The notes: generated by a model from the sequence alone, not told the origin. A DNA stretch of 38,784 nt from an uncultured Muribaculaceae bacterium (GCA_964545825.1 CAZJGX010000001.1:1-38784); one strand, 5' to 3'; shown: positions 1,323 to 37,558, counted from the stretch's first letter. Numbers and translations: made by a program.

Positions 1323-1336
1323 AAGGAGTTTTGATA

Positions 1337-1872: not shown

Positions 1873-2175
1873 ATGAAAATAAAATGGTCTAAGATTTTTG
1901 ATTGGTCTGTGACAGGTATCCAGGCGCCGTATATGTTGGCTGGGACGGCTGACGTGTTGGACGCGTATTGTGTAGAAGTTTTTTATCGCCACCATGGCCA
2001 GCGCAGATATTCGTTTCCGGTGACGCGTGACAGGGCATTGATTTCTGGACGTGAATTGGCACGTCAACGTGCGATGACGTTTTATAACAAAATGCGTCGT
2101 AAAATGCGGATTGGGTTGGGCTATGTACCAACGGTGATAAAAATTGTAACGCAAAGTCAAAATAGGGGATTGTAA
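1873..2175 (+). CDS. small hypothetical protein, paralogue A of a tandem pair
   Basis: 100-aa ORF. Shares FDWSV, Y.HHG, FP and A..F..KMR+ motifs with the next ORF. Its stop overlaps the next ATG (TAATG). Confidence 0.55.
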   Translation: MKIKWSKIFDWSVTGIQAPYMLAGTADVLDAYCVEVFYRHHGQRRYSFPVTRDRALISGRELARQRAMTFYNKMRRKMRIGLGYVPTVIKIVTQSQNRGL

Positions 2176-2432
2176 TGTTTTTTGGATGGACGCATTGGTT
2201 TGATTGGTCGGTTGCGTCTGTCAGTGAACCTGTTGAATTTTATCATCACGGTAATCGATTGCGGGTTGTTGCGTATCAGGTTGTGGTTCAGTATAACTAT
2301 CATGGTACGCGTACGGTGTTTTTTCCGATTGGTGATTATGGGCTGTTTGTTTCCTCTAATCATCAGGCATACACACAGGCAATGCAGTTTTGTGATAAAA
2401 TGCGCAAAAGGATTTTGCAAAAACAACGGTAG
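2175..2432 (+). CDS. small hypothetical protein, paralogue B of a tandem pair
   Basis: 85-aa ORF paralogous to 1873-2175, translationally coupled to it. Confidence 0.55.
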   Translation: MFFGWTHWFDWSVASVSEPVEFYHHGNRLRVVAYQVVVQYNYHGTRTVFFPIGDYGLFVSSNHQAYTQAMQFCDKMRKRILQKQR

Positions 2433-3725: not shown

Positions 3726-3993
3726 TTGTTTTTATTACTGCTGCATTATATAATTAAAATGTCAATAGGTATTCTGTTGACGGGGTGTGATGACCTCTGC
3801 CATAGCGTCGGGATATATACTCATGGCGCATATAATGCGCTGTTTTTTTTATTGCGACGAAACTATCTCCTGACCTGTGGTCAGGAGGGTTGTGAATATA
3901 TTGAATAAGCACACAATTCTATGGATTGTCATCAACCTCCTGGCCACTAAATTTTTGGTGGTTTTTTGTTTAACAAAATTAGGAGATTAGACA
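3726..3993 (+). promoter_or_regulatory. promoter + structured 5' leader, copy 1 of the repeated leader family
   Basis: -35 TTGTTT 3726-3731, 17-nt spacer, -10 TATAAT 3749-3754. 5' hairpin 3762-3780. GC hairpin 3826-3840 plus U tract. CTCCTGACC 3867-3875 / GGTCAGGAGGG 3879-3889 / CAACCTCCTGGCC 3933-3945. CCAC..GGTGG plus T6 at 3944-3967. AGGAG 3981-3985. ATG 3994. Confidence 0.8.
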
Positions 3994-4410
3994 ATGAAAA
4001 AAATATTGATTCCCGGCATTTTTATAACATGTATTGGTGTTGCCAGTGCGGCAACTGTAAAGTGTATTGCATTTAATACACAAACGGCATGCACTTATGA
4101 TAATCCTGGTGATTATGTAGATTTTACAGCCTATTGTGGTGGTATCACGGTCAGGGGGCTTGGCTATTGTTCAGAACAAAGTGGCAGCAGTGTCGGGTCT
4201 ACGACAATGGATTTGGAAAAGTCAAAAGGTATATATTGTTGGTGTCGTATGGTTTCGCCTGCATTATCCAATTGGGTATATTTGGAAAGTGCCATGGATA
4301 GTAGTCAGTGTGTGCATACGTGCAGCATAGATTGTGCGATTGCGTTGAATGATAGCAGGACGAAGGGTTCCAGTATGCGTCAAGGTATGTTTAATTCTGC
4401 CATTTATTAA
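3994..4410 (+). CDS. secreted cysteine-rich protein (138 aa)
   Basis: Signal peptide MKKILIPGIFITCIGVASA. Many Cys in the mature part. Preceded by leader copy 1 and an AGGAG RBS. Confidence 0.7.
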   Translation: MKKILIPGIFITCIGVASAATVKCIAFNTQTACTYDNPGDYVDFTAYCGGITVRGLGYCSEQSGSSVGSTTMDLEKSKGIYCWCRMVSPALSNWVYLESAMDSSQCVHTCSIDCAIALNDSRTKGSSMRQGMFNSAIY

Positions 4411-4423
4411 ATAGGATTGTGAA

Positions 4424-4729
4424 ATGAGGCAAATAAAGAAAATATTAGTTGTGTTGATTTGTCATTTGATGGTGTATGGTGCGTATGCCGCCACACCGTC
4501 AACCCAATGTCCATCCGGATATGTGACAATTGTTGAACCGTATACGATAATAGGATATCCGTATTGTGAATCTGTTGGCTCAATTATCCCAACGGAAATT
4601 GAACGTATAACAACGTGTTTGACTGATTCACCAGAAGCGGTTTGTACAATGTTTGTGCCGCGTGGTACGAAATATCAGGATGAAAGTGGTGAATACCAAT
4701 ATTCTGAACCATGTGCATTGGAACCATAG
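4424..4729 (+). CDS. secreted cysteine-rich protein (101 aa), second gene of the bicistron
   Basis: Signal peptide ..LICHLMVYGAYA, AGGA RBS, starts 13 nt after the preceding stop, terminator follows. Confidence 0.65.
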   Translation: MRQIKKILVVLICHLMVYGAYAATPSTQCPSGYVTIVEPYTIIGYPYCESVGSIIPTEIERITTCLTDSPEAVCTMFVPRGTKYQDESGEYQYSEPCALEP

Positions 4730-10383: not shown

Positions 10384-11484
10384 TTAAAAAATGTATTTAA
10401 AACTGCTGCCCCAATTCCAACCTGTACGGCCGCCATCGCGACGGTTGATGTGTAATGCAACGTTAAATCTGTCGATTGATTTTATAACGCTAATGCCGTA
10501 TTCGGTATAATCATCTGATTTTAAATCGATTGTGTTAAAATCATTACTGCGCGCGTCGCCGCCGTCAGTCCATCCGATTACATATCGTACGTTTGCAGTT
10601 CCAAACCAACCGGCACCGATATACTTAATTGCGCGTATACCCGGTGTTATTTCGAACTGGGTCAGATTAGTGTTTGATATTTTTATGTCTTGGTATGTGT
10701 AATCATCTGATTTTACCCATGTGCCGCCCATGTATAATTCTGGCTGTAATGTCAGGGTGTCGTCAATTGCGATATTGTATGCCGCATGCGCCATTGCGCC
10801 GACCCATGTGTTAGTATAGTCAATATCGCCGTATCCGTTTTCAATACTGTTAAACATTGTGCCGATATTTGCTGTTGCGGATATGTTAAAGTTAGAAATA
10901 TTGTATCCTGAATAAACGCCTATATGACCACCTTGTTCATTGATTTTTAATGATGAATTTGTTTGTTCGCCACCGGCGTATCCGCCATATATACCCCATT
11001 GTGATACCGCGTTCCTGATTTGTGTGTGGCCGCCGGCCAAGGCGACGCTTACAATATCATAATCGGAATCAATTTTTCCAAAATTATCAAAGTGTGCATA
11101 GTCGTCAAAGTGTTGCCAGTTGGCAAATAAACTGTTGAATTTGGGCAGGGCGATGTCGCCGCCATTATGTCCGTGTGTGTATGCGGTGCCGTCATCGTTG
11201 TATTCGCCATAAACGGGCATTGTGCCATATTTTGTTGTGTCGTTGTTATTTTGTGGCGTGTTTGTATTGTTGTTTTGCGCCAGGTTTAAGTGTGCACGGT
11301 TGCCCAATGCGGCGGCCATTGTGCCTTCGAAAGATTCGATGGCGTTTGTTGCAATTGAGTGCTGGATGGCCGCAATATTGCGCGTAGACAAACTGTTGGC
11401 ATATGGTGTTATTGCGGCCCATGTGTTGCCTGTGGCTATGTTGGCGGCAAGTACAGATAATGCAATCATGTATGTGTTTTTCAT
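10384..11484 (-). CDS. outer-membrane beta-barrel protein (autotransporter-beta-domain-like)
   Basis: Signal peptide MKNTYMIALSVLAANIATGNTWA. Alternating aromatic/Gly-rich strands. C-terminal ..SSFKYIF with terminal Phe. Confidence 0.6.
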   Translation of the reverse strand: MKNTYMIALSVLAANIATGNTWAAITPYANSLSTRNIAAIQHSIATNAIESFEGTMAAALGNRAHLNLAQNNNTNTPQNNNDTTKYGTMPVYGEYNDDGTAYTHGHNGGDIALPKFNSLFANWQHFDDYAHFDNFGKIDSDYDIVSVALAGGHTQIRNAVSQWGIYGGYAGGEQTNSSLKINEQGGHIGVYSGYNISNFNISATANIGTMFNSIENGYGDIDYTNTWVGAMAHAAYNIAIDDTLTLQPELYMGGTWVKSDDYTYQDIKISNTNLTQFEITPGIRAIKYIGAGWFGTANVRYVIGWTDGGDARSNDFNTIDLKSDDYTEYGISVIKSIDRFNVALHINRRDGGRTGWNWGSSFKYIF

Positions 11485-11546
11485 GCGTAATTCTCTCTCT
11501 TTTGATAAGAAGTATATCATATTCGAAAATGTTTTTGAAACTGAAT

Positions 11547-13545: not shown

Positions 13546-14212
13546 TTTGTATTTGTAATAAAGTAATTTATGAAAAAAATATGGCGCAAATTTTGCGCCA
13601 TATTTTTTGTGGGATAAAAGGTTGGTGGATGTTGGTGGTTTGTAAAATGATATCTGTTGAAATGGATAAAAGTGTATATTGTTTTGTGTGCAGGGTGACA
13701 TAATCAAAAGGCGCATAATTTATATTATGTATAGTTTTGTGTTCTAGTGGTGTGATGTGGTGTATGATTGGGTGCCGTTTTGATTTTGTTGCTTAAAATA
13801 AAAATGTTTCTGAAATCAGTTTGATAAAAATTATTTTTGATGTTCATTATTAATTTTTTTGTGTTGTTCTGGTGCGAATATTTTTTTGTTCTGTGTTGCA
13901 TTTAATTGAGTGTTATTGGGTCTATATGAAAAACATGGATTTTGTGTTTGTTGTTGTGTGTGTTTTGTGGTGGTTTTTGGATGTTGTTTTGGTTGTGATG
14001 GATGTCTTGGGTGCTCTATTTCTGGTGGTGGGGTTTAATGTAAAACTATACATAATTCTTAAAAGGGTGGTTTATTGTTAAAAATATTTATAAGTGTAAT
14101 AACATTGTAATAATTTTAATTGTTAAAGTAAAATATTGTATCTTTGTCGGTGTTATAATGTTTGTTTTTTTGGTGTGTTGATTTTTTATCTGATGCATTT
14201 ATAATATGTTGT
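13546..14212. other. long non-coding, strongly G+T-biased / C-depleted intergenic region
   Basis: Hand count: about 29 C in 13621-14160 (540 nt). Only one compositional-artefact ORF. Confidence 0.6.
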
Positions 14213-14926
14213 ATGAGTACAAGATTAGATCAAGAATTGGTTTCACGTGGATTGTATATCAGTCGTGCCAAGGCGGTAGCTGCGATAAAGGCCGGCTTGG
14301 TTCGTGTTAATGGTGTTGTTGCGACAAAGGCCAGTCTGGCTGTATCTGATACTGATATTATTGATGGTGCGGATTTGCCGTATGTTTCAGGACGTGGCAG
14401 TTTAAAGTTGGCGCATGCGTTAGATACGTTTCATGTTAATCCGGCGGGATATCAGTGTCTGGATGTTGGTGCCAGTACCGGTGGTTTTACCGAAGTCTTG
14501 TTGTCCCGTGGCGCGGCGCATGTTATTGCGGTGGATGTTGGTTCAAATCAATTGGTTGCCGAAATAAAAAATGATGCCAGGGTTATGTCAATGGAACAGA
14601 CGGATATTCGCACCCTGCCCCCGGTGTCCGGAATTGATTTGATAGTTATTGATGTTTCGTTCGTATCGCTGACCAATATTGCAGATGCGATTGCGGCATG
14701 GCGTTCGCCAGAGATAATTGCGCTGATAAAGCCTCAGTTTGAGGTATCACGTGAAATTGCCGCCCGTTTTAACGGCATTATTAAATCAGAACAATTGCAT
14801 CATGATGTAATTAATCGGGTTGAAAAATGTTTTTCAGCCTTGGGCTATGTATCGCGTGGCGTGATTGAATCGCCAATTCGTGGTGGCAGCGGTAATATTG
14901 AATATTTGGCCTATTTCGTTAAATAA
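14213..14926 (+). CDS. tlyA: TlyA-family 16S/23S rRNA (cytidine-2'-O)-methyltransferase
   Basis: Start at MSTRLDQELVSRGL (S4-like). RGSLKL. LDVGASTGGFTEVLL. IDVSFVSL. G..GNIEYL. Confidence 0.88.
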   Translation: MSTRLDQELVSRGLYISRAKAVAAIKAGLVRVNGVVATKASLAVSDTDIIDGADLPYVSGRGSLKLAHALDTFHVNPAGYQCLDVGASTGGFTEVLLSRGAAHVIAVDVGSNQLVAEIKNDARVMSMEQTDIRTLPPVSGIDLIVIDVSFVSLTNIADAIAAWRSPEIIALIKPQFEVSREIAARFNGIIKSEQLHHDVINRVEKCFSALGYVSRGVIESPIRGGSGNIEYLAYFVK

Positions 14927-14985
14927 AACGTTTTGTGAATTTGTTCTGGTTGAATATAGGTTTAAAAACATACATAATTACAACA

Positions 14986-15052
14986 GGTGGAGGTTCTAAA
15001 CTGTATACTGTGAGACAGCGTCGCTTATTCGACGTATTCACGACCCTCCACC
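14986..15052 (-). ncRNA. orphan copy of the core closing-stem / A+U-rich junction domain of the repeated leader family (no terminator, no downstream gene)
   Basis: RNA sense: GGTGGAGGGTCGTGAATACGTCGAATAAGCGACGCTGTCTCACAGTATACAGTTTAGAACCTCCACC. Collinear with GGTCAGGAGGGTTGTGAATATATTGAATAAGCACACAATTC..AACCTCCTGACC. Confidence 0.45.
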
Positions 15053-15299
15053 TACTTTTGCAGATGAGGGGTGTTTTTTGTCCCCGCGGACACACAGTAT
15101 TTGGGTTTAGCGCCCTTGGCGACAGGAAAAAAAGAACCTGTGCTTGTGCTGATATTTTAAACTAATTTTGGGATAAAAATCAAGTTCTTTTATTAATTGA
15201 TATGTGTTGTAATGTACAAATTGCTTGAATTTAGTGGTGTTGGTGTATAAAATTCAAATTATTTGAATTTAATTAAACAGCAGCCCGAGGTATATAACA

Positions 15300-17696
15300 A
15301 TGGCAGATAATATCGACAAAATTCATGCCCGCGAATCAAAATGGCAGAAAAAATGGCAAGAATCTAATGTCTTTACACCTAAAAATGATGGCGTAAAGCC
15401 GCCTTTTTATATGTTGGCGGAATTTCCATTTCCGTCGGGAACGGGGTTGCATGGCGGACATATGTTAAACTATACCGGGTGTGACGTTATGGCGCGTTTC
15501 ATGCGTATGCGTGGCTATGATGTGTTGTTTCCGTTGGGGTTTGATTCTTTGGGGATTTCAGCAGAAAATTATGCCACCAAAATTGGTCAGCATCCATCGA
15601 TTGTTGTGCGTGATTTGGCTAAAAAATTTACTAAAAATATGCTGGATATGGGTTGGTCTATTGATTTGAAATCCCAGGTGGCAACATCTGATCCAGAATT
15701 TATAAAGTGGACACAATGGATGTTTATTCAGTTCTTTAAGGCGGGTTTGGCATATAAGTCTATGTTGCCGATGAACTGGTGCCCGCATTGCCGTACGACG
15801 CTGACAAATGAAGAATTGGAAGATGGCAAGTGTAATCGTTGTCATGGCGATGTTGAAATCAAAGAAAAAATGCAATGGAATTTGGCGATTACAAAATATG
15901 CGCAGCGTATGTTGGATGATTTGGCGTTGGTTGATTATCCAGAAAAAGTTAAGCGTGACCAGATGAACTGGATTGGGCGTTCAACTGGCGCGGATATTGA
16001 TTTCCGTGTCGGTGATGATGTGATGACGGTTTATACCACACGTCCTGATACTATATTTGGTGCGACGTTCTGTGCAATTGCGCCGGAACATAAATTGGTG
16101 GCCAAGTGGCTGGATGATGGTCGTATTACAAACGCTGATGCGGTGCGGGATTATATTCGTGCGGCGGCGGCCAAATCTGAAATTGACCGAACAGATGTGA
16201 CCAAAGAGAAAACAGGTGTCCAATTAGAAGGCATTATGGCAACAAATCCATATACTGGTAAAGAAATTCCGATTTTTGTTGCGGACTATGTCTTGGCCAA
16301 TTATGCCCAGGGTACGATTATGGCGGTGCCCGCGCATGATGGGCGTGACTGGGATTTTGCCAAGAAATACAACCTGGAAATTATCCCGGTGTTGGCGGGT
16401 GGAACTGCGGACGCTGTATGGGAAGGTGATGGTGCACATATTAATTCAGGATTTATGGATGGTATGAGCAAGGCAGAAGCAATCACAGCCGCAATTGAAT
16501 TTGGTGAAAAAGGTGGCTTTGCACGTCCAAAGACACGTTTTCGTATGGGCGATTGGGGATTTTCGCGTCAGATGTACTGGGGTGAACCAATTCCGTTGGT
16601 ATATTGCGAAAAATGTGGTTGGGTGCCGGTTCCAGAATCTGAATTGCCGCTGATGCAGCCGTTCATGGCGGATTTTCGTCCAACCGAAGATGGGGAAAGC
16701 CCACTTGCACGTGCAACGGATTGGGTGAATACCACCTGCCCGCATTGTGGTGCGCCGGCGCGACGCGAGACTGATACTATGCCACAATGGGCGGGCTCGT
16801 CGTGGTACTATATGCGGTACCTGGATCCAAAAAATGATTCAGAGTTCTGTTCCCGTGAACAGATGGCGCGGTGGATGCCGGTTCATCACTATAATGGTGG
16901 TAATGAACATAATACACGCCATTTGATTTATTCGCGTTTTTGGCACAAGGCATTGTATGATTTGGGGTATGTGACCACGCCGGAGCCATACAAGAAAAGA
17001 ACGACCAATGGCTTGTTGATGGGTTCGGATGGCAAAAAGATGTCTAAATCTGCCGGAAACGGTTTTCAGGTTGATGAAAAAGTTGCCGAAGTTGGGGCCG
17101 ATGCTGCGCGTACAACGGTATTGTCGCTGGGGCCATGGGATTCAAATGTTAATTGGTCAGAAGGTGCATTGGCCGGTGTTCAGCGTTTCTTGAAACGTGT
17201 TGAAAATATGTCTGATAATTTGACAGATGCGGCCCTGACCGCCGAACAAGAAAGATTGATGCATCAATTAATTGCGGATGTGACAGAACGTATTGAGAAC
17301 ATGCGGTATAACACGGCGATTTCCGCGATGATGGAATATCTGAACGCGTTTGGTGGCACAATGCCCCGCCCTGCGTATGTGGCATTGATACAGTGTTTAA
17401 ATCCGTTTGCACCGCATTTGACCGAAGAAATATGGGAAAAATTGGGTAATATGGAAATGTTGGTACTGTCGTCGTGGCCGACATTTGATGCGTCAAAGTT
17501 GGTCAAGACATCAATGACGGTCGTTGTTGCAGTAAATGGGAAACGTGCGGCGGATTTTGTGGTGCCTGTGGATGCATCAGAATCCGATGTTGTTGATGCG
17601 GCCAAAAACGCGGCGGCAAAAAGGTTGGTTGACGCCCAAATTATAAAAACAATTGTTGTGCCTGGTAAGATGGTGAACTTTGTTGTAAAAAAGTAG
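15300..17696 (+). CDS. leuS: leucine--tRNA ligase
   Basis: FPFPSG.GLHGGH (HIGH-type), CP1 editing domain, KMSKS at ..GKKMSKSAGN. Confidence 0.95.
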   Translation: MADNIDKIHARESKWQKKWQESNVFTPKNDGVKPPFYMLAEFPFPSGTGLHGGHMLNYTGCDVMARFMRMRGYDVLFPLGFDSLGISAENYATKIGQHPSIVVRDLAKKFTKNMLDMGWSIDLKSQVATSDPEFIKWTQWMFIQFFKAGLAYKSMLPMNWCPHCRTTLTNEELEDGKCNRCHGDVEIKEKMQWNLAITKYAQRMLDDLALVDYPEKVKRDQMNWIGRSTGADIDFRVGDDVMTVYTTRPDTIFGATFCAIAPEHKLVAKWLDDGRITNADAVRDYIRAAAAKSEIDRTDVTKEKTGVQLEGIMATNPYTGKEIPIFVADYVLANYAQGTIMAVPAHDGRDWDFAKKYNLEIIPVLAGGTADAVWEGDGAHINSGFMDGMSKAEAITAAIEFGEKGGFARPKTRFRMGDWGFSRQMYWGEPIPLVYCEKCGWVPVPESELPLMQPFMADFRPTEDGESPLARATDWVNTTCPHCGAPARRETDTMPQWAGSSWYYMRYLDPKNDSEFCSREQMARWMPVHHYNGGNEHNTRHLIYSRFWHKALYDLGYVTTPEPYKKRTTNGLLMGSDGKKMSKSAGNGFQVDEKVAEVGADAARTTVLSLGPWDSNVNWSEGALAGVQRFLKRVENMSDNLTDAALTAEQERLMHQLIADVTERIENMRYNTAISAMMEYLNAFGGTMPRPAYVALIQCLNPFAPHLTEEIWEKLGNMEMLVLSSWPTFDASKLVKTSMTVVVAVNGKRAADFVVPVDASESDVVDAAKNAAAKRLVDAQIIKTIVVPGKMVNFVVKK

Positions 17697-17708
17697 TTGG
17701 TGCAAAAT

Positions 17709-17741
17709 AAAAAACATCCCGCAGACAGCGGGATGTTTTTT
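17709..17741 (+). terminator. intrinsic terminator of leuS
   Basis: ACATCCCGC-AGACA-GCGGGATGT plus a T run. Confidence 0.85.
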
Positions 17742-17743
17742 AT

Positions 17744-18011
17744 TTGTGTTTTATTTCGGTTGGCGGTATAATCATATTGTTCGTGGGTGTTCCATGAACG
17801 GGGTGTGAGAACCCGGCATAGGCGTCGGAATATGTTCTTGTGGCGTATGATTTGCGCTGTTTTTACTATTGCGACGGAAACAAACTCCTGGCGTTGGTCA
17901 GGAGGGTCGTGAAATATCAAAATAAGCGCACAATTCCTATGATTGTTCTCAACCTCCTGGCCCACCATTTATCGGTGGTTTTTTGTTTGTGATAAATAAC
18001 AGGAGTTTGAA
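17744..18011 (+). promoter_or_regulatory. promoter + structured 5' leader, copy 2
   Basis: -35 TTGTGT 17744-17749, 17 nt, -10 TATAAT 17767-17772. Hairpin GTTCGTGG/CCATGAAC 17779-17799. GGTCAGGAGGG 17896-17906. CAACCTCCTGGCC 17950-17962. CCACC..GGTGG plus T6 ending at 17984. AGGAG 18001-18005. Confidence 0.8.
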
Positions 18012-18539
18012 ATGAATATAAAATCGTTAATTTTTGTTGGGTTTGTGTTATGTGTTCTGGGCAATGCGGCACATGCCGCGGTTATTACTACAAGGTCATG
18101 TTGGTTGGAAAACGCGAATTGTTGTAAATCAAAGGACACTTATTGTTCCGATACACTATGTATGCCTGGCGGAAAGGGAACTTTGTGTCCAACAGAAGGC
18201 GAGACATCTTGTACTTTGCCATTTCAGTTGCAGTGCCAATCGGCTACATATGACGGTTTTAATGGGTATGTTTTGTGTTATGATGTCAGATGCCCTGTTG
18301 AATCGGCTCAATGGTGGTGTGCTGATGGTTTTTATTCCGATGGGGTGTTGGAAACGGATGAAAATGGCAATGAGATTCCGGATTGTTATGAGTGTGATAC
18401 AGCAGGATTGGATAATACACCGGCCAAATCCGATAAAACAGTAAAAGGGGTGGAAGCCTGTTATATACCGGCGGGGGAAATGGTACGTGATAGGTACGGA
18501 AAATATAAATATACAGCCGATTGTCACTATAAATGGTAA
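18012..18539 (+). CDS. secreted cysteine-rich protein (175 aa)
   Basis: Signal peptide ..FVLCVLGNAAHA. 15 Cys in the mature part (hand count). C-terminal ..ACYIPAGE..YKYTADCHYKW. Confidence 0.7.
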   Translation: MNIKSLIFVGFVLCVLGNAAHAAVITTRSCWLENANCCKSKDTYCSDTLCMPGGKGTLCPTEGETSCTLPFQLQCQSATYDGFNGYVLCYDVRCPVESAQWWCADGFYSDGVLETDENGNEIPDCYECDTAGLDNTPAKSDKTVKGVEACYIPAGEMVRDRYGKYKYTADCHYKW

Positions 18540-18566
18540 AAAGAATGCCCCGTTTGGGGCTTTTTT
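18540..18566. terminator. bidirectional terminator between convergent Cys-rich protein genes
   Basis: GCCCC-GTTT-GGGGC flanked by A and T runs. Confidence 0.8.
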
Positions 18567-19362
18567 ACTGTTGATAAAAGCATTCATCGGTTAGAAAAAA
18601 TGTGCCGGTTGTATCTATGAAGGCTTCTTCGTAATAACTGCTTAAACCATCGATATAGCATTCTGTGATACTGGTGGCACCGTCGCTATATGTTTCGCCC
18701 CGTACAGCGGTACCGTTGTGGGCCAATGTGCCCAGGTGGCCGGCGTCACTGTCGGGGCATTCCGTGCATGTGGTGCCGTTTTTGTAATACATATATTTGC
18801 ATATAAATGTTGTTGTGCCGGTGCCACCGTTACATGTTGCGTTTGCCGGGCATGTGATGCATCCGCTGGATGGATTGCCATAGTATCCGGATTTGCATCG
18901 ATATTGTGATGTGGCGGTTTCACCACTGCGTACGTTGCATTTGCCTTGCATTTGGTATGTGTATGTATAATAACGTTCGCGTCCATTGCCGACATCCTGC
19001 CAGCCGCCGTCCGGTGTTGTTTCGCATGCGCAACCGAACTCTGGGCCGCTGGTCATGACATAAACATTATAGCCAATTCTTTCGCATAATGATTCGCAGT
19101 ATGCATATGGTTGACTTGCAGAGTATCCTGTATCTGTGAAATCTTCGCATTTCCCCAGTTCGGCGCGCCAGCAAAAATGTTCTTCTGCTTTGGCGGCGCA
19201 TTGGGTGTCGGTTATATTTGTAAGACTGCCGCCTATAATATAATAGTTAGTGTATGGGCAAACGGTGCCAGTGCATTTGTCCATGATTTGTACTGTTCCT
19301 GATGCGGAATTGGTTATGGCCATGGCAAGTGCCATTGCGGTTAATAATAAATGTTGTTTCAT
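18565..19362 (-). CDS. secreted cysteine-rich protein (265 aa) with CxxGYYG..C..CP-type repeats
   Basis: Start at MKQHLLLTAMALAMAITNSASG. YRCKSGYYGNPSSGCITCPANATCNGG. C-terminal ..ATSITECYIDG..ECFY. Confidence 0.7.
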   Translation of the reverse strand: MKQHLLLTAMALAMAITNSASGTVQIMDKCTGTVCPYTNYYIIGGSLTNITDTQCAAKAEEHFCWRAELGKCEDFTDTGYSASQPYAYCESLCERIGYNVYVMTSGPEFGCACETTPDGGWQDVGNGRERYYTYTYQMQGKCNVRSGETATSQYRCKSGYYGNPSSGCITCPANATCNGGTGTTTFICKYMYYKNGTTCTECPDSDAGHLGTLAHNGTAVRGETYSDGATSITECYIDGLSSYYEEAFIDTTGTFFLTDECFYQQ

Positions 19363-19626
19363 TTGTTCGTTTCTCCTGTGTTTTTCGTAATGAAAAACCA
19401 CCAAATTTTGGTGGTCAGGAGGTTGAGAACAATCCTTAGATTTGTGCCGCTTATTTTTATATATCGCAGCCCTCCTGACCGCTTTGGGCCCAGGAGTTTT
19501 TTCGTCGTATTAAAAAAGGCGCATTGCGCCAATCAATTCCTGACGCTAAGGCAGAGGTTCTCACACCTCATCAACGGAACACCCGTTGACAGTAATAATT
19601 ATATAATGCATGGCATGGAAACACAA
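19363..19626 (-). promoter_or_regulatory. promoter + structured 5' leader, copy 3
   Basis: Minus strand: -35 TTGTGT 19621-19626, 17 nt, -10 TATAAT 19598-19603. GTCAACGG/CCGTTGAT hairpin. GGCGC-AAT-GCGCC plus U6. CTCCTGG../GGTCAGGAGGG (19470-19480)/CTCAACCTCCTGACC (19413-19427). CCACC/GGTGG 19398-19414 plus U run. Confidence 0.8.
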
Positions 19627-19630
19627 ATAA

Positions 19631-19657
19631 AAAAATCCCGCCGTTTGGCGGGTATTG
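19631..19657 (-). terminator. intrinsic terminator of the glycosyltransferase operon
   Basis: CCCGCC-AAAC-GGCGGG plus T7 on the minus strand. Confidence 0.8.
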
Positions 19658-20764
19658 TTATGACCATAATGATTCATACAGTTTTATTGTGTCTGAAATC
19701 ATTTTTTTGCGTGTATATCTGTTCAGAAATCGTGAATATCCTGCAACAGACATGCGGTTGCGTACGGATGCGTTTTCTATAACTTGGCACATTTGGGCCG
19801 CATATTGCGTTGTGTTAATATTGTGTTCATTGTCCACATCAGCATAAAGGGCCGCATTGTCAAACATTTCAACAAGACCGGACACACGTGATGATACGAT
19901 AGGCAGATTATATGACAGTGCCTCGATACCTGCAAAAGAACAGGCTTCTTCCCGGGATGCGAACAGAGCGGCATCTGCTTGCTCGTAATACCGACGAATT
20001 TCGGAATCGTCGGTTAATATGCCTTTATAGACAACCGGCAGGTCGGCGATTTCATCCAGGATGCCTGATGCCTCTGTATCATGGCCACCCAAGACAGTCA
20101 CTTCTATCTTATGTTTTTTTGCAACAGTTCGAATTGCAGGGACTATTTTTGCAAAGCCTTTGTTCTTTGCCAGACCGTTTGCAAATATAAACCGAAATGT
20201 GTCGTCTTTGGGTTTCTTGGATTCGATTTTGGGTTTATCAACACCGTTATAGATTACTGAAAATGGACGCGTGCAATGCCAGTAATCCATATATTTACGA
20301 CCGTTATCGCCAACCAAGATAATTGCATCCATATTAAAGAACGGATCGGCCGGCACAAATCCGGGCGTGTTATTCATTGGCGGCTGGCAATGCAAGACAC
20401 CGATTGTGCGACAATATATGCGGCTTTTTATCATGTATGCCAATCCTTCGCACGACAGACAATCACTTTTTACGATTAGATTCGGCATAGATTTTATCTT
20501 TGGCCAAATCATATTTATAACCGCATCAAACAGGCTTTGAAACGGAAAACCCATCGGGTGAAAAATCTGTAATTCGTCATCGGTATCAACGATACGAATA
20601 TCTTTGTATTCCGTTGAACGATAAAATACGATGTTATACGTTGATATATGCGATGGCATACTGTCGCGCAGAACGCGAAAGTATGTTGCAATACCGCTTT
20701 GATAATGCGCATCACGCGCATCGATTTCTATTATGCTGATAGATTTAAGTGATTTTTTACGCAT
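19658..20764 (-). CDS. glycosyltransferase (GT-B fold, GT4-like)
   Basis: C-terminal EEACSFAGIEALSYNLPIVSSRVSGLVEMF (E-x7-E type region). FIFANGLAKNKG. Starts 9 nt after the upstream stop. Confidence 0.8.
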   Translation of the reverse strand: MRKKSLKSISIIEIDARDAHYQSGIATYFRVLRDSMPSHISTYNIVFYRSTEYKDIRIVDTDDELQIFHPMGFPFQSLFDAVINMIWPKIKSMPNLIVKSDCLSCEGLAYMIKSRIYCRTIGVLHCQPPMNNTPGFVPADPFFNMDAIILVGDNGRKYMDYWHCTRPFSVIYNGVDKPKIESKKPKDDTFRFIFANGLAKNKGFAKIVPAIRTVAKKHKIEVTVLGGHDTEASGILDEIADLPVVYKGILTDDSEIRRYYEQADAALFASREEACSFAGIEALSYNLPIVSSRVSGLVEMFDNAALYADVDNEHNINTTQYAAQMCQVIENASVRNRMSVAGYSRFLNRYTRKKMISDTIKLYESLWS

Positions 20765-20773
20765 CTGTTATCT

Positions 20774-21589
20774 TTATGCCCCCGTGCCACTACCTGTACC
20801 AGTAGTAGCGCATCCTGTATCATTTTCTGTAATGGCCAGTGTACTGGAATAAGAACAGTGTCTATTTGCCAACATATATTTGCCGACACAATCGTTATAT
20901 GTTTGTCCAGAAGAAGATGTCGCACCTGATTCATATACATAACAGTTTGTGATACCGGTGCCAGCTGTTGAACCAAAACAATATCCTGAAACACACATAT
21001 TGTCCGCATTGCCGGCGTATATTCCTGTTGGAAATGCGGCTAAGCCTTCGTTAAAGCGCCCGCGCCCCGGACATAGTATACAACAACCTGTAAACGCGTT
21101 GAGGTCGGTACCGCTATTGATTGCATCACATGGCGATGTGGACTTTGTTTGATATGCGCCATTTAGACATCCACTAAATTTGAAAATACTCAGGCTGCCA
21201 ATTTGGCCTGATGTTTTGTTTAATACCATAGAACTTGCACCTGCAAGCATGTCTTTCTCGCATTTCAGACCTGTGCCGTCACAGGAAGAGTATGTGCCAC
21301 ATGGCGTCTGTTTTCCATCCCAACACGAACACCAGCGGCACAATGCTTCGGTCGCCGTGCCTGTTGCACATGTGTATTTGTTGTTCCCGTCTTTAAATTG
21401 ATTGCAATAACTTCCTTGTAATGCTGCATCATTAAAAACATATAGATATCCGCCGGTACCACCGTTTGCTGTATAAGAAAGAACGGTATAGCCTGCTGTG
21501 TGTGTATAGTCACTTTTTGCATCGCGCATGCCTATTGCGCCGAACACCGCCATACATGTTCCCAGAATTCGAATAGTTGTACGTTTCAT
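20774..21589 (-). CDS. secreted cysteine-, Gly/Thr/Ser-rich protein (271 aa)
   Basis: Start at MKRTTIRILGTCMAVFGAIGM. Many Cys. ..GITNCYVYESG... C-terminal GCATTGTGSGTGA tail. Confidence 0.7.
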   Translation of the reverse strand: MKRTTIRILGTCMAVFGAIGMRDAKSDYTHTAGYTVLSYTANGGTGGYLYVFNDAALQGSYCNQFKDGNNKYTCATGTATEALCRWCSCWDGKQTPCGTYSSCDGTGLKCEKDMLAGASSMVLNKTSGQIGSLSIFKFSGCLNGAYQTKSTSPCDAINSGTDLNAFTGCCILCPGRGRFNEGLAAFPTGIYAGNADNMCVSGYCFGSTAGTGITNCYVYESGATSSSGQTYNDCVGKYMLANRHCSYSSTLAITENDTGCATTGTGSGTGA

Positions 21590-21859
21590 TTTGTTTGATC
21601 TCCTGTCTTTTTCGAAATGAAAAACCACCCAAAATCAAGGTGGTCAGGAGGTTCAGAACAATCTCAAGAATTGTGTGCTTATTCAATATATTCACAACCC
21701 TCCTGACCATCGGTCAGGAGATTATTATCATCAGAATAAAAAATAGCGCGTTTACGCGCCACAAGATTATATTCCGACGCTTGAGCACGGGTTCTGACAC
21801 CCCATTGACGGAACTCCCGTCAACATTGTTATTATATAATATCATGGGAATTAATACAA
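21590..21859 (-). promoter_or_regulatory. promoter + structured 5' leader, copy 4
   Basis: Minus strand: -35 TTGTAT 21854-21859, 17 nt, -10 TATAAT 21831-21836. GTTGACGG/CCGTCAAT hairpin 21804-21824. GCGCG-TAAA-CGCGC 21746-21759 plus U tract. A 42-nt block at 21667-21708 is identical to 3879-3920. CCACC..GGTGG plus U run. AGGAG. Confidence 0.8.
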
Positions 21860-21861
21860 AT

Positions 21862-21889
21862 AAAAAATCCCGCCGTTTGGCGGGTATTT
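21862..21889 (-). terminator. intrinsic terminator of the rpiB-containing operon
   Basis: CCCGCC-AAAC-GGCGGG plus a T run, near-identical to 19631-19657. Confidence 0.8.
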
Positions 21890-22336
21890 TTATGATATTT
21901 TTTCAATGCGTCTGATACGTCGTTCAATGTTGTCAAACGGGCTTTCCAGAAATGTTTGTGTGCATAGAAATGCAACTTCTATATCTATATCATCGGCGGC
22001 CAATGCCAGAACGTTTATATCGTCGTGAAATCTGTCATCGCGTGCCTGGGTTGGATTGTCGCATCGTGATGCGCGGATATGACGGTATCTGTTCGCTGCG
22101 ATTTCCATGCCGGCACCGGTACCACAAATCAATATGCCGCGTGAGTTTTTGTCGTCTTTCATCGCGTCCGCCAAATCTTTTGCAATATCTGGGAAATCAA
22201 CAGATGTGTTTGGGTCGTCTGTGCCCAAGTTTACAACCGTATATCCGGCCGCGTTCAGCATTTCAATCAGATATAATTTTACCCCTACCCCACGGTGGTC
22301 AGCCGCAATATAGACCTTGGATACGTTTTTGTTCAT
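21890..22336 (-). CDS. rpiB: ribose-5-phosphate isomerase B
   Basis: Start at MNKNVSKVYIAADHRG, ILICGTGAGMEIAANR. ATGA overlap with the bactofilin stop. Confidence 0.88.
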   Translation of the reverse strand: MNKNVSKVYIAADHRGVGVKLYLIEMLNAAGYTVVNLGTDDPNTSVDFPDIAKDLADAMKDDKNSRGILICGTGAGMEIAANRYRHIRASRCDNPTQARDDRFHDDINVLALAADDIDIEVAFLCTQTFLESPFDNIERRIRRIEKIS

Positions 22337-27776: not shown

Positions 27777-30356
27777 TTATTTTGTTAATGCTTGGGGCGC
27801 TTTGTCTGGAATTTCGCATGCAGACCCAGCAGACCCACTGGGTTTATATGGGCATACCTGTTTCGTGGTCAGATTGATTGATTGGGTGCACCACTGGTCA
27901 CGTGATGTGTCGGTGGTTGCCTGTGATACCTTGATGCCTTCTGTGCTGCAGGCGGCGTCAAGCGCATCTTTGCCATCTTTTGGCGTTATTGTTGGCAGCG
28001 CGGCAACGCAAATCGGGCTTTTCCCCCATTTGCTGCGTCGGCCACCGTTTTCCCAGCACAGGCATGCCCCCCATGATTGTGTATCTACACTTAAACCATA
28101 GTCACGTGGACACATGTTTTCTTGGGTGCCAATACTGTATGAACTTATCAAGTCTGCATAATCTGATTTTTCAAAATCCCCAATGCAAAAGTCGGTTTCT
28201 GTGTACGCGTGCAACGGCAATATAAATTGCGGTTCCAAGAATCTGCCTTGCAGATTTGAGCACTGAATAGACAGCATATCGACAATCTGATAGTAAATTT
28301 CGGTTGCAACGCCGGTTGGACGTGGTTCGTGATGCGCCAATAGGGGCTTTTTTGTTTTTTTGCCGCCCTCTTCTATTTCCTTTACTTCTTTTGTGCCGTA
28401 TCTGATTTCGGCTTCTTTTGGTTCTGACGTAATTTCAAACAAAATGCCCTTGGATGATATCTTTGTAGTGTAATATTTGTCGAATCCACCGAATACTTCT
28501 TCTACTTTGTCCTTGCAAGAATCTATTTCTGCCAATTGTTTTGCACACTCTGATTTGTATTGGTGGCCACCAGTGGTTTCGTCATACAGGGTTAACCAAT
28601 CCAATGCCTCGCCGGATGTGAACAGCCCACTGTACGGATAGTAAAAGTTCTGGTATCCTGTTCCGCCAAATTTATCAAAGCATTGTTTTGCTGCCGCGCG
28701 ACATGCAGATGTGCGATCGGTATCTTTGCGATTCTCGATATAGTCTGCGATGATTTTGCCGTCAAACATATTGTCGCATGAATTAACATAGTTGCGACAC
28801 ATTTCACTGTTTAATACGACTTTGTCCGGTTGGATTACAATATCACTGCCGTCGGTCAGTGCCTGCATTGCCTGGGTTAAACCTTTGTCCACGTTTGTAT
28901 AACATGATGAAATGAAATCAAAACAGCCTTGTTTAATTTCTGCAACTTTGGACTTTTGGGCATAGTATATAGACAGCAGTGCCTTGTCCAGATATTCTGC
29001 CCAGACGTCATCTGCCTGCTCGACGCATTTATCTAATGCGGGTGCTGCGAATTTTTTTACACGTTTTTCAAAGTTTTGAACGAATTGACGATTGTCGACC
29101 AATTTTGATAATTGTTGGTTTGCGGCATCAACACTGTCACTGAACGTTAACAATTTTTCCAGTTCATAGAATTTTTCAACACCGGTAATAGGCTTGCCCG
29201 TAGATATATCGATAAATTCACCATTATCCAGACACTTGTGATAATTTGCACCGCATACTTCTTCGCTAAGTACGGCGGCCTCTACATTATTCAAACATGT
29301 TGTAAAGTCGGATGAATTGTGGTTTTTGCGGTTTTCAACACGTGCCAAATCCAGCATTGCACTGCCCTCGCGCACGGCGGATTTCATTTGCTTTTGCTTG
29401 GTTTCTATCGCAGTTTGGACAGTATTGCAGTCTTGTTCAATCGCCATCAAGTATGCAGTTATTGCACGTTGCAATGACGCGTCATTACAATCACCGCGTA
29501 CGGCCTGGCGGCATTGGGGGTATACGGCGGAATATAAATTTTTGCCGTTATAGGTACCGATTATTTGGCCGGCATCAGCCGTACCAAACGCATTGGCGGT
29601 ATCAAATGATATGTTGATGCTGTTCAGGTCAGAATATTTTCCACCAACCGATGCATTGTCGCCACGTATAGAATTCATAATTGCCTGTAATAATGCCTTG
29701 GATGCCGATGAATCTGATGTTAGTGCACTTTCACCCTCGGATGCGCGTTTCATGGATGTTGCCTGGGCGGCGGTCATACCAACAACGTCCAGGTTTTCTG
29801 TAAATGTGGTTAATTTTTCGCCGGCCTGTTGCAGTGTGTCAAACGCATCATCCAAATCGTACACCCTGTCATTGCAAGAGCATCGACGATAATTGTCGTT
29901 TTTCAGTTGGCAAAACTGATCCATACATGTGAAATATGCGGTTTTGCAACGTTCATAATCTGCACCGGTGCGTGTTTGACTCATTACGCTGGTGTCTGTA
30001 TCTGTTGCAGCGCGTGCGTTGGTGGCGGGCATCCGGGTTGTTGTGGCCCGTGTGGCAACTGTTTTTAATGCGGTTGCGGCACGTGATATTGTGGCGCGTG
30101 CGCCACTGGTTTCAGGTGTTGCCCGTTGTGATACGTTATTTGCAGTACGTGCACTTGTGCGTGCCGATGTGGTTGTTGCCCGGGCCTGTGAATTTGATGT
30201 GCCCAAGCGTGATGTTGTGGTGCGTTCAACAGGCTTGGTTGAAACAACACGTTGTGATGATGTGGTACGTGAATTTGATGCGCCGTCACGCACGGCGGCC
30301 GTTGCGCCTGATGCAATAAATATAGAATATGCGATAAAAATTAGAATTCTGCTCAT
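27777..30356 (-). CDS. large secreted cysteine-rich protein (859 aa) with N-terminal T/S/A/R-rich low-complexity region
   Basis: Signal peptide MSRILIFIAYSIFIASGATA. About 110 aa of ARATTTSARTSART-type low complexity. The remainder is Cys-rich, with no motif I recognise. Confidence 0.7.
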   Translation of the reverse strand: MSRILIFIAYSIFIASGATAAVRDGASNSRTTSSQRVVSTKPVERTTTSRLGTSNSQARATTTSARTSARTANNVSQRATPETSGARATISRAATALKTVATRATTTRMPATNARAATDTDTSVMSQTRTGADYERCKTAYFTCMDQFCQLKNDNYRRCSCNDRVYDLDDAFDTLQQAGEKLTTFTENLDVVGMTAAQATSMKRASEGESALTSDSSASKALLQAIMNSIRGDNASVGGKYSDLNSINISFDTANAFGTADAGQIIGTYNGKNLYSAVYPQCRQAVRGDCNDASLQRAITAYLMAIEQDCNTVQTAIETKQKQMKSAVREGSAMLDLARVENRKNHNSSDFTTCLNNVEAAVLSEEVCGANYHKCLDNGEFIDISTGKPITGVEKFYELEKLLTFSDSVDAANQQLSKLVDNRQFVQNFEKRVKKFAAPALDKCVEQADDVWAEYLDKALLSIYYAQKSKVAEIKQGCFDFISSCYTNVDKGLTQAMQALTDGSDIVIQPDKVVLNSEMCRNYVNSCDNMFDGKIIADYIENRKDTDRTSACRAAAKQCFDKFGGTGYQNFYYPYSGLFTSGEALDWLTLYDETTGGHQYKSECAKQLAEIDSCKDKVEEVFGGFDKYYTTKISSKGILFEITSEPKEAEIRYGTKEVKEIEEGGKKTKKPLLAHHEPRPTGVATEIYYQIVDMLSIQCSNLQGRFLEPQFILPLHAYTETDFCIGDFEKSDYADLISSYSIGTQENMCPRDYGLSVDTQSWGACLCWENGGRRSKWGKSPICVAALPTITPKDGKDALDAACSTEGIKVSQATTDTSRDQWCTQSINLTTKQVCPYKPSGSAGSACEIPDKAPQALTK

Positions 30357-32487: not shown

Positions 32488-32726
32488 AAATCCCCCTATT
32501 CTGCATATGCAAAAACCACCTATGCGTGGTGGTTGGAGGTTCGTTACAATTTTGCTTAAATTGTGCTGTTTATTCGATATATTCACAGGCCCTCCAACCG
32601 CTTCTGATTGGAGATATTTAACGTCGCGCCATTTATGGCGTGGACGAAGCTAAAAGAGGTAACGACACCCCTGTATGATGCATTTCATACATTGCTATTT
32701 TATATTAAAACAGTATTCGTTAGCAA
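32488..32726 (-). promoter_or_regulatory. promoter + structured 5' leader, copy 5 (most divergent, compensatory changes)
   Basis: Minus strand: -35 TTGCTA 32721-32726, 16 nt, -10 TATAAA 32699-32704. GTATGA/TCATAC hairpin. CGCCA-TAAA-TGGCG. CTCCAATC (32606-32613) / GGTTGGAGGG (32590-32599) / CCTCCAACC (32531-32539). CCACC/GGTGG 32516-32532 plus U5. Confidence 0.75.
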
Positions 32727-36493: not shown

Positions 36494-37558
36494 ATGAAAA
36501 AATACTTTATATTTTCTGTTGCTTGTGTGATGGCCGGGGCGTCAAATGCCGCGTCGTTATTGCAGGCTGTCAAATTTCCAAAAACATTTGATGATGTTAA
36601 ATGGTCTGAACGTATGGATGTGTTGGCCGAAGACTATAATAATTATGCAGAATTAAGCCCGTATCAACAATTAAGACTGGTAGAAGCCGAAAATCAGGCG
36701 TATCAAGAAATAGATGCAATAAACGCATCAGAGTGTGCGGCAACGGGAAACGCATGCGATATTGATACACCTATATCTGATGGTAGTACATATACCGTTG
36801 TAATAAATAATAATAGTACACCTATATCTGAAACCGTTGAAAATACGCCTGTGGTGGAATCGTATCCGGTTCAGGAAAATCCCGTTGGTGCATCGTCCGG
36901 TGGGGCGGCACAAACACCAACAGGATATTGTTCTGTTCGGCAACCAGAAATACCACAGGGACAGCAGGTGCCGTTGGGCAGTCCTGTGAATTTTAATGAT
37001 TTGCCGGCCGCGGCATCAGATAGAAGCCGGCGCATCGCCGCAGACAGTAAAAAAGGGAAGTTTTGTTCGCCATATGGTTGTCGCGAGAAATATAACAATC
37101 GTGGAACCTATCGCCCACATCAGGGGATTGATATAGGATGTACTGCGGATTATTTTGGGATGCCGGTTTATACACCTGCCGATGGTGTTGTGACCCAGGT
37201 TAACTATGCCAAAAAAGGAAAGTCGGCTGGAAATTATATTCGTATAAAACATGCGGACGGATGGGAAACACAGTATATGCATTTGGATAAAATTTTTGTT
37301 TCCAAGGGACAATCTGTTAGTGCGGGATGTGCAATTGGGTTATTGGGGCATTCCGGCGGAAATGCGGATTCATCAAATCCATCAATGGGTATAGATATAA
37401 GTCATTTGCATTACGAGGTTATTTATAATGGTTCGGCGTCAAATGTACAAACACCAAACGGCAGTAGTATAAGAGTTGTACGTGGTGGCAATAAGGCATG
37501 TGGTAAATTTAAAGCAAAAATTAAACCGGATGATTTTGTCACATATTATTATAAATAA
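36494..37558 (+). CDS. secreted M23 (LytM) family peptidase
   Basis: Signal peptide ..ACVMAGASNA. HQGIDIGC. YMHLDKIFVSKGQSV..G..IG..GHSGG. HLHYEV. Confidence 0.85.
   Translation: MKKYFIFSVACVMAGASNAASLLQAVKFPKTFDDVKWSERMDVLAEDYNNYAELSPYQQLRLVEAENQAYQEIDAINASECAATGNACDIDTPISDGSTYTVVINNNSTPISETVENTPVVESYPVQENPVGASSGGAAQTPTGYCSVRQPEIPQGQQVPLGSPVNFNDLPAAASDRSRRIAADSKKGKFCSPYGCREKYNNRGTYRPHQGIDIGCTADYFGMPVYTPADGVVTQVNYAKKGKSAGNYIRIKHADGWETQYMHLDKIFVSKGQSVSAGCAIGLLGHSGGNADSSNPSMGIDISHLHYEVIYNGSASNVQTPNGSSIRVVRGGNKACGKFKAKIKPDDFVTYYYK

Follow-up and report, generated by a model that had tools for sequence, protein, structure and literature searches.

What kind of genetic system keeps the DNA in front of a set of genes better conserved than the genes themselves? 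This question is raised by positions 17744-21859 of a 38,784-nt stretch of DNA (GCA_964545825.1 CAZJGX010000001.1:1-38784; hereafter the window), a 4.1-kb segment made up of three units, C, D and E; two further units, A-B and F, lie elsewhere in the window. All share one layout, which reads in order: promoter −10 box, leader of ~210 nt, terminator, Shine-Dalgarno (SD) site and gene for an exported protein. An earlier note on this DNA had placed three units in the segment and two outside it and had described their regulatory regions as better conserved than their coding sequences. The open reading frames (ORFs) and their coordinates proved correct, and the contrast in conservation is real: pairwise identity among leaders A, C, D and E is 75-79% (shuffles, ~58%), whereas the first 400 nt of the coding sequences of these paralogous units are 59-62% identical, which is the level of shuffled sequences. 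Leader F shares 59-64% identity with the other four. On the evidence set out below, we consider it probable that the cluster brings together in one place three units of a regulon specific to the 'Candidatus Enterousia' lineage (order Rs-D84, gut Alphaproteobacteria), in which an attenuator leader governs a variable repertoire of exported proteins. These products would form an envelope or secreted repertoire that varies between strains and serves interaction with a partner, a host or phages.

The leader is a real structured RNA. Its five copies in the window were found by repeat search, by alignment and by a covariance model, R1, at 101-211 bits, and the pattern AATAARC..CACAA..ATTGT....AACCTCC (24 specified bases) matches five times in the window against an expectation of 0.00. 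In an alignment of 67 copies, the 5′ part forms a hairpin (P1); P2 and P3, which are both long-range helices, close a junction that contains the variable hairpin P4, the hairpin P6 (CUCCUGACC/GGUCAGGAG) and the hairpin P5, whose 15-nt loop GAAUAUAUUGAAUAA is invariant, as is the junction. On the 3′ side of P5 follow an anti-SD-like segment, CCUCCUGACC, an intrinsic terminator and, ~30 nt further, an AGGAG SD site; AGGAG-like SD sites precede the ATG starts at 19362, 21589 and 32487. Five positions of P2 vary freely yet always remain complementary (99.8-100% paired, with three to four pair types per position), and P3 covaries at all six of its pairs. Overall, 91% of cells are paired in the 67-copy MAFFT alignment compared to 79% in shuffles, and the covariation score is 0.416, compared to 0.185 for shuffles (0/500 shuffles reach the observed value) and at most 0.10 for slid controls. 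R1 was built from this alignment. When the model was used to align 78 copies from the other half of the loci, 96% of cells were paired and 42 of 50 pairs covaried, that is, showed compensatory changes; an alignment made in this way leans towards the model, and its slid and shuffle controls were far lower. Minimum free energy (MFE) folding of leaders D and A independently reproduces most of the helices. The terminator hairpin (CCACC..GGUGG followed by a U run) is present in all five window leaders, is nearly universal in the 145 aligned copies and was recovered by an independent scan.

The combination of covariation support at 42 of 50 pairs with an invariant junction and P5 loop is that of a conserved aptamer, as in riboswitches; because the genes downstream are not metabolic, they point to no ligand. 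Across positions 17700-21900, the leaders have no relevant match among the 4227 families of Rfam 15 even at E ≤ 10, and the gathering-level matches in the window are four tRNAs only, so we rejected assignment to a known RNA family. Two other candidates were set aside. A leader peptide is contradicted by the AUG at the end of P1, which is ACG in leaders A and C, by the lack of an SD site and by frames that stop after ~12 codons, and a simple inner hairpin (ACAATTC..GATTGT) was replaced by the covarying helices P2 and P3. Within P4, a GGCGCG..CGCGCC hairpin followed by six to eight U residues (17840-17860 (+), 19518-19530 (−) and 21743-21762 (−)) resembles an additional intrinsic terminator early in the leader; a variant subfamily of the element lacks it.

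How the leader might act is suggested by two competing pairings. The segment GGUCAGGAGG can pair with the upstream segment CUCCUGACC to form P6 (94% of cells paired) or with the downstream segment CCUCCUGACC (97% pairable), and the second pairing takes up 3 nt of the terminator's 5′ arm. In the variant subfamily, which includes leader F, all three segments are altered together, to CUCCAACC / GGUUGGAGG / CCUCCAACC, with UGA replaced by AA and UCA by UU; such a joint change is a signature of a terminator/antiterminator switch. An intrinsic terminator thus lies between promoter and SD site, and a mutually exclusive helix overlaps its 5′ arm. Because there is no room for a promoter between terminator and gene, the gene would be transcribed only by read-through, from which we infer that the leader is a transcription attenuator. 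In the OFF state, P6 would form and leave the downstream CCUCCUGACC free, allowing the terminator to form; the free segment may also mask the SD site, with which it can pair in the full-length fold. In the ON state, GGUCAGGAGG would pair with CCUCCUGACC as a pseudoknot relative to P2/P3, removing the base of the terminator and permitting read-through. A small ligand, or a protein or RNA acting in trans, could tip this balance, with the invariant junction and the P5 loop as the predicted recognition surface.

If the leader defines a regulon, the genes behind it should have something in common. A pattern scan of one genome per GTDB species identified at least 120 leader loci; the counts that follow refer to the matches listed. 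All of these are in gut metagenome-assembled genomes (MAGs) of the Rs-D84/Enterousia type, the 120 listed loci being titled Enterousia, Alphaproteobacteria, 'Rickettsiales' or (uncultured) proteobacterium MAGs from animal guts, and a single MAG carries up to 6-7 copies. The covariance model detects roughly 10-15% more copies within the same 8-kb pieces. A signal-peptide-like N-terminus, called by inspection and a hydrophobic-window heuristic, is present in 114 of the 119 scorable downstream ORFs. Among the 101 complete ORFs with such an N-terminus, the median cysteine content is 6.5% (background, 1.5%); it is ≥4% in 70, 2-4% in 15 and <2% in 16. The cysteine-poor ORFs include outer-membrane β-barrels (Pfam OMP_b-brl/Opacity), a small family of 68-104 aa and long exported proteins, and cytoplasmic glycosyltransferases come under the leader through operons. 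The common denominator is therefore 'exported/envelope' and not 'Cys-rich'. Three signal-peptide proteins of the window, at 27777-30356 (−), 10384-11520 (−) and 36494-37558 (+), have no leader in front of them, one of them an 859-aa protein with 3.5% cysteine and no Pfam match that is 72% conserved in GCA_029057925.1 (L002). The leader marks a subset of the exported proteome that is enriched in, but not restricted to, Cys-rich proteins. Of the co-regulated regulon proposed in the earlier note, a regulon-like set is supported: a near-invariant leader precedes mostly exported proteins, although cysteine-poor proteins, β-barrels and three to four non-exported genes (see below) also stand behind it.

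The six window proteins, A-F, contain 10, 6, 16, 19, 20 and 10 cysteines in total, and the mean cysteine content of the other 24 window proteins is 1.5%. The hand count given previously for protein C, 15 mature cysteines, is exact. The signal peptides claimed for all six were likewise recovered by inspection and heuristic, each N-terminus running from a charged n-region through a hydrophobic h-region to a cleavage motif of small residues (for example AHA|A, AYA|A or AYA|D), and A-F are predicted to be exported by the Sec pathway. No lipobox ([LVI][ASTVI][GAS]C) was found at the six N-termini; E has ILGTC, only after a hydrophobic stretch of four residues. The same note described highly divergent proteins sharing only short motifs. 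Pairwise BLAST among A-F is indeed significant for B-C only. The proteins are not one divergent family; at least four groups can be told apart (B/C/D; A; E; F), and B, C and D share a true module. This lineage-specific CYIP module (..G.TSIT.CYIP.G..FSD.TG...Y...CYY..), which forms the C-terminal end of the protein, gives hidden Markov model (HMM) matches of 2.7e-18 in D, 7.5e-8 in C and 5.8e-5 in B (B by hhalign, 1e-3). The proposed G.TSI..C motif thus corresponds to homologous sequence in D, C and B; it is marginal in E, where hhalign aligns residues 207-248 (E 0.0033, probability 9.6%) and a degenerate CYIP module is possible, and it is absent in F. The order in the CYIP family is signal peptide, variable cysteine-containing N-terminal part, (Y)RC..GYYG....C..CP repeats and C-terminal CYIP module; D has a variable N-terminal region, a β-rich middle and two C..GYY..C..CP repeats between its signal peptide and the module. 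Protein F differs in architecture from the other groups; L002 carries a fragment of its ortholog, and paralogs are present in L066 and L084. As an observation apart, one leader-controlled exported protein (L123:221-961) joins a CYIP module (4e-12) to a ribosomal protein L7/L12 C-terminal domain (Pfam 6.5e-27).

None of A-F has a match in Pfam, NCBIfam, PHROGs, PADLOC or PDB, and the proteins thus belong to no characterized family; by sequence, PDB contains no match for F, the CYIP family or the A family, and neither CYIP nor CWCKM, the family of A, has a Pfam or NCBIfam counterpart. The best homolog of D is annotated 'MAG: Alphaproteobacteria bacterium'. A filter-free search with the D-family profile returned 961 representatives at 50% identity, of which 262 have values below 1e-10, and the profile matches protein C (P0011, 2.3e-17); a word-prefiltered search of 5.8 billion proteins returned 11 matches only, owing to the prefilter. 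Long multi-repeat matches of the profile carry Pfam VSP, Ephrin_rec_like or EGF_MSP1_1 domains (VSP in P0026), and two regulon members, L091 (39.3 bits) and L006 (25.4 bits), pass the gathering cut-off of Ephrin_rec_like (PF07699; 23.1 bits). The resemblance to ephrin-receptor-like and variant-surface-protein (VSP) repeats to which the earlier note pointed is therefore real as a distant relationship, with A-F themselves below thresholds: they have no Ephrin_rec_like match even at E ≤ 1 and no HMM match to the Giardia VSPs, and the C-termini ...CFYQQ, ...CHYKW and ...GSGTGA lack a hydrophobic anchor. AlphaFold2 models D with a mean predicted local distance difference test (pLDDT) score of 76.8, rising to ~90 in the C-terminal half. 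A Foldseek search of this model against PDB and BFVD gave nothing at E < 0.3, the weak top hits being mostly EphA2/EphA4 Cys-rich domains. E is an orphan: no homolog but E itself was found among 5.8 billion proteins, and neither it nor the adjacent GT4-family glycosyltransferase has a relative in any of the 120 fetched loci. Small, disulfide-type Cys-rich exported proteins built from few modules, namely ephrin-receptor-like repeats with CYIP, CWCKM, and orphans such as E, are the products of these units.

Two side observations concern these families. In L002, at 13949-16597, a 237-aa CYIP protein with a Ser-rich tail is followed by GT2 and GT8 glycosyltransferases and lies ~400 nt downstream of the L002 counterpart of the leader-like element at 14964-15133; a kinship of E with this protein was considered and rejected, as the two are not similar. 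Both glycosyltransferase-linked Cys-rich proteins (E with GT4 and the 237-aa protein with GT2 and GT8) end in an extra Ser/Thr/Gly-rich tail, which may be a glycosylation substrate. A phage contig, L125:9872-10595 (IMGVR_UViG_3300010163_000459), carries a full leader (143.6 bits) and a 162-aa Cys-rich exported protein of the CYIP family, placed in reverse orientation and moron-like, with the terminase large subunit (phrog_38) on one side and a portal/head-tail adaptor gene (phrog_332) on the other.

The repertoire varies between genomes in both sequence and gene content. Compared with the L002 ortholog, the leader of D is 89% identical, its coding sequence 73% and leuS 82%. At the protein level D is 63.6% identical with a nonsynonymous divergence (dN) of 0.27, and LeuRS, RpiB, LpxA, bactofilin and the M23 peptidase are 86-94% identical with dN of 0.04-0.09, so that D evolves 3-6 times faster than housekeeping genes. 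The apparent ratio of dN to synonymous divergence (dS) is below 1; because dS is saturated at 1.1-1.5, this ratio is not informative on positive selection. Within a set of five D orthologs, identity is 46% in the N-terminal part and 80% in the Cys repeats, with 17 of 19 cysteines conserved. The syntenic locus of L002 has only D between rpiB and leuS, and C, E and GT4 are missing. In the window, a second copy of the 34-nt rpiB terminator (21862-21895), a segment that includes the last two codons (TCA TAA), follows GT4 at 97-100% identity, and this duplication fits insertion of a leader-E-GT4 cassette by recombination. Variation of this kind in gene content and sequence fits rapid turnover without demonstrating positive selection.

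Rs-D84 bacteria live in the gut, have genomes of 0.75-1.0 Mb without respiration and most biosynthesis, and have been proposed to depend on a partner cell (PMC12306168); the same study pointed to uncharacterized membrane proteins. Several points weigh against a regulon that controls an exported repertoire through attenuation in such cells. Disulfide formation is hard to place in Rs-D84, because respiratory chains are reportedly absent (PMC12306168). The proteins may reside in the periplasm, on the surface or in the medium, and D has no significant structural neighbor by Foldseek (PDB, BFVD). For the switch, the covariation of the antiterminator comes essentially from one variant clade and so probably reflects one evolutionary event; the choice between termination and read-through, the assignment of the ON and OFF states and co-regulation are likewise read from sequence. 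In other genomes, three to four leaders precede genes for non-exported products, namely a hexapeptide transferase (58 nt), AcpS and RecF (130-250 nt); these leaders are probably orphaned. Finally, a sixth, divergent leader-like copy at 14964-15133 is strongly conserved although no gene lies downstream: its core is ~93% identical to the syntenic L002:13369-13545, although the flanks cannot be aligned and dS exceeds 1 between these genomes. This copy may be a stand-alone RNA, and its conservation fits a trans-acting role better than a purely cis-acting one.

These last observations bear directly on the best surviving alternative, that the leaders are mainly a small-RNA family, whose transcripts end at the terminator and act in trans or titrate a common factor, with read-through expression secondary. 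The ORF-less copy has held its sequence despite saturated synonymous sites, some leaders elsewhere have no adjacent exported gene, and the invariance of the P5 loop and junction would also be expected of such a family. Nevertheless, >95% of copies have an exported gene and an SD site 45-70 nt after the core, with no space for a separate promoter, and the gene association is very specific. We regard this alternative as unlikely, noting that small-RNA and cis roles are not mutually exclusive.

Less likely again is a constitutive cassette, in which the upstream block is a strong promoter with a stabilizing or translation-enhancing 5′ untranslated region (UTR) that senses nothing and was spread by duplication or gene conversion, comparable to the conserved 5′ regions of the vsp/vlp surface-protein families of Mycoplasma. 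The element is multi-copy in a reduced genome and keeps a fixed orientation with −10 box and SD site, and the duplicated rpiB terminator beside E-GT4 shows that recombination occurs at these units. Such a cassette does not account for an intrinsic terminator between promoter and SD site in almost every copy, nor for the unrelated protein folds behind one leader. Moreover, copies within one genome differ in their P2/P3 sequences, each of them compensated, which indicates that they are old, maintained by selection on structure and not homogenized. Repeat analysis speaks against it as well: Tandem Repeats Finder returned only two trivial low-score arrays, no homopolymer or simple-sequence-repeat tracts were present, and the repeat search of the window found no promoter-specific flanking inverted repeats that would make promoters invertible. 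On the same grounds we rejected a phase-variable surface gene family.

The A-B unit is the natural starting point for a third alternative, in which the Cys-rich proteins act as secreted toxins or antagonistic peptides, accompanied by partner or immunity proteins, and are directed against competitors or the partner cell. Members of the A family (~145 aa; KCVAL...CWCKM.SPA.S.WV...) occur in several copies per genome, and B-type genes lie 0-22 nt after A-type genes in at least 13 loci (for example L041, L055, L071, L072, L079 and L094); in L018, L054, L107 and L120 a further A paralog takes the second position. The number of mature cysteines is always 5 in canonical B proteins and mostly 9 or 7 in A proteins, and odd counts on both sides hint at an intermolecular A-B disulfide. 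AlphaFold2 gave no usable model of A alone (pLDDT 35.9). The alternative gains from this conserved bicistron with odd cysteine numbers, from the small, secreted, multi-copy and strain-variable character of the proteins and from the family member carried by a phage, but it is the least likely of the three, since A and B both have signal peptides, no toxin, bacteriocin or defense family was matched (Pfam, NCBIfam, PADLOC, PHROGs), and outer-membrane barrels and long fiber-like exported proteins stand behind the same leader.

We therefore retain the regulon with an attenuator leader. A bolder form of it, which we put forward tentatively and think somewhat doubtful, holds that a class of large riboswitch-like leader RNA not described before acts as master switch for a variable repertoire of Cys-rich surface or secreted proteins in gut Alphaproteobacteria that depend obligately on a partner, that its cassettes move by recombination and phages, and that the junction and P5 loop bind a signal linked to the partner or to envelope and secretion. 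Were this so, it would be a bacterial counterpart of the parasite variant-surface-protein system, controlled via RNA structure.

Comparison with known systems places each part of the regulon. Giardia coats itself with Cys-rich VSPs in the anaerobic gut, and C..G(Y/F)Y...C..CP disulfide-type modules are common to the window proteins and to Ephrin_rec_like (PF07699, formerly GCC2_GCC3), Giardia VSP (PF03302) and EGF_MSP1_1; unlike the Ephrin_rec_like and VSP proteins, the six window proteins are below Pfam thresholds, 100-380 aa long and without a C-terminal membrane anchor. The Vlp/Vsp proteins of Mycoplasma are variable surface lipoproteins with conserved 5′ regions. Both systems involve a reduced-genome, host-dependent bacterium, upstream sequence better conserved than the mature coding part and strain-variable gene content, but the conserved block here is a covarying structured RNA with a terminator and not a promoter with a phase-variable tract or invertible element, the proteins have no lipobox, and unrelated families stand behind one leader. 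Multi-copy attenuator regulons include T-box leaders and the cyclic di-GMP riboswitches that precede genes for adhesins, pili and secreted proteases. As in those, one structured leader with terminator and competing helix is reused before one functional class; unlike those, the leader has no Rfam match, and for an element of this kind both the gene class (Sec-exported, mostly Cys-rich proteins) and the host clade are new. Lastly, envelope-stress small RNAs of the MicA/RybB type control outer-membrane protein mRNAs; their common element is the trans-acting RNA, and the target 5′ UTRs are not homologous. The resemblance would lie in coordinated post-initiation control of envelope mRNAs through 5′ regions, with outer-membrane barrels among the genes behind the leader, and the difference in 5′ UTRs that are themselves homologous and highly structured.

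A literature search found nothing on the leader RNA or these proteins. Terminator/antiterminator leaders and Cys-repeat exported proteins are known as kinds; as far as we found, the novelty lies in this class of RNA, in the protein modules and in their occurring together in this clade. Bacteria of the Rs-D84/Enterousia type, which have genomes of <1 Mb and are uncultured, are widespread in the guts of livestock and humans. Our analysis provides for them a covariance-supported model of the leader, defines the CYIP and CWCKM modules and the A-B pair, and yields a recognizable gene set tagged by one RNA element that probably comprises much of the interface of these bacteria with the outside. For RNA biology, the leader is a strong structured-RNA candidate with an unusual association, with exported proteins rather than metabolism. 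For microbiome biology, it offers a handle on surface, host-interaction and phage-interaction genes in an uncultured clade and predicts their coordinated control. The features of the units are listed in Table 1.

Table 1 Features of the leader-controlled units and of the related leader-like element (window coordinates)
Feature	Position	Strand	Evidence and remarks
−10 box TATAAT, unit C	17767-17772	+	
Leader RNA, unit C	17775..17983	+	P1, P2/P3 long-range helices, P4, P6, P5, terminator; R1 172 bits; alignments
Terminator-like site, leader C	17962-17978	+	T run after; terminator scan
Protein C, 175 aa	18012..18539	+	Signal peptide; 15 mature Cys; divergent member of CYIP-module family; CYIP HMM 7.5e-8
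Bidirectional terminator hairpin between convergent genes C and D	18547..18560	both	Terminator scan
Protein D, 265 aa, 19 Cys	18565..19362	−	ORF; orthologs at 50-62% identity
Leader RNA, unit D	19393..19594	−	R1 167.5 bits; MFE z-score −5.2; terminator 19416-19396
Terminator after GT4 gene	19630..19663	−	Includes last two codons; near-identical copy of the rpiB terminator; direct repeat family D1; terminator scan
GT4-family glycosyltransferase	19658..20764	−	Second cistron after E, 9-nt gap; without signal peptide
Protein E, 271 aa, 20 Cys	20774..21589	−	Signal-peptide-like N-terminus; orphan
Leader RNA, unit E	21620..21828	−	R1 202.5 bits; terminator 21645-21623
Leader RNA, A-B bicistron	3757..3966	+	R1 211 bits; MFE z-score −6.1
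Protein A, 138 aa, CWCKM family	3994..4410	+	Family alignment of 22 members; tblastn matches in 32 loci
Protein B, 101 aa, 5 mature Cys	4424..4729	+	Partner cistron of A; C-terminus is CYIP module
Leader RNA, unit F, variant subfamily	32511..32695	−	R1 101.6 bits; variant segments
Protein F, 377 aa	31354..32487	−	Signal peptide; short Cys-rich N-terminal part, then long Cys-poor part
Sixth, divergent leader-like RNA between tlyA and leuS	14964..15133	−	Without downstream ORF; R1 31 bits, E 4e-8

The remainder of the window is largely housekeeping in character, with the 3′ end of uvrA, ftsJ, rnhA, tkt, hisS, a release factor gene, aroK, mscL, tlyA, leuS, rpiB, bactofilin and M23 peptidase genes, lpxA/B, rmlBDCA and four tRNAs. 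The GT4 gene is recognized by Pfam Glycos_transf_1 (5e-13) and GT4-conflict (9e-10), by phrog_2170 (4e-19) and by NCBIfam; in the PADLOC and PHROGs searches it alone among the genes of the units has a match, to a family of phage 'moron' glycosyltransferases. A 175-aa ORF at 1331-1858 (+), which immediately follows the 3′ end of uvrA, consists of an SRP54 M domain only (Pfam SRP_SPB 1.1e-23), with no NG domain upstream. Because the M domain binds RNA and signal peptides, it is curious to find this stand-alone ORF in a locus with many signal-peptide genes, and its product is a candidate RNA-binding factor for the leader. At 1873-2432 (+), two adjacent small ORFs of 100 and 85 aa have similar N-terminal halves (..W..FDWSV...) and look like tandem paralogs.

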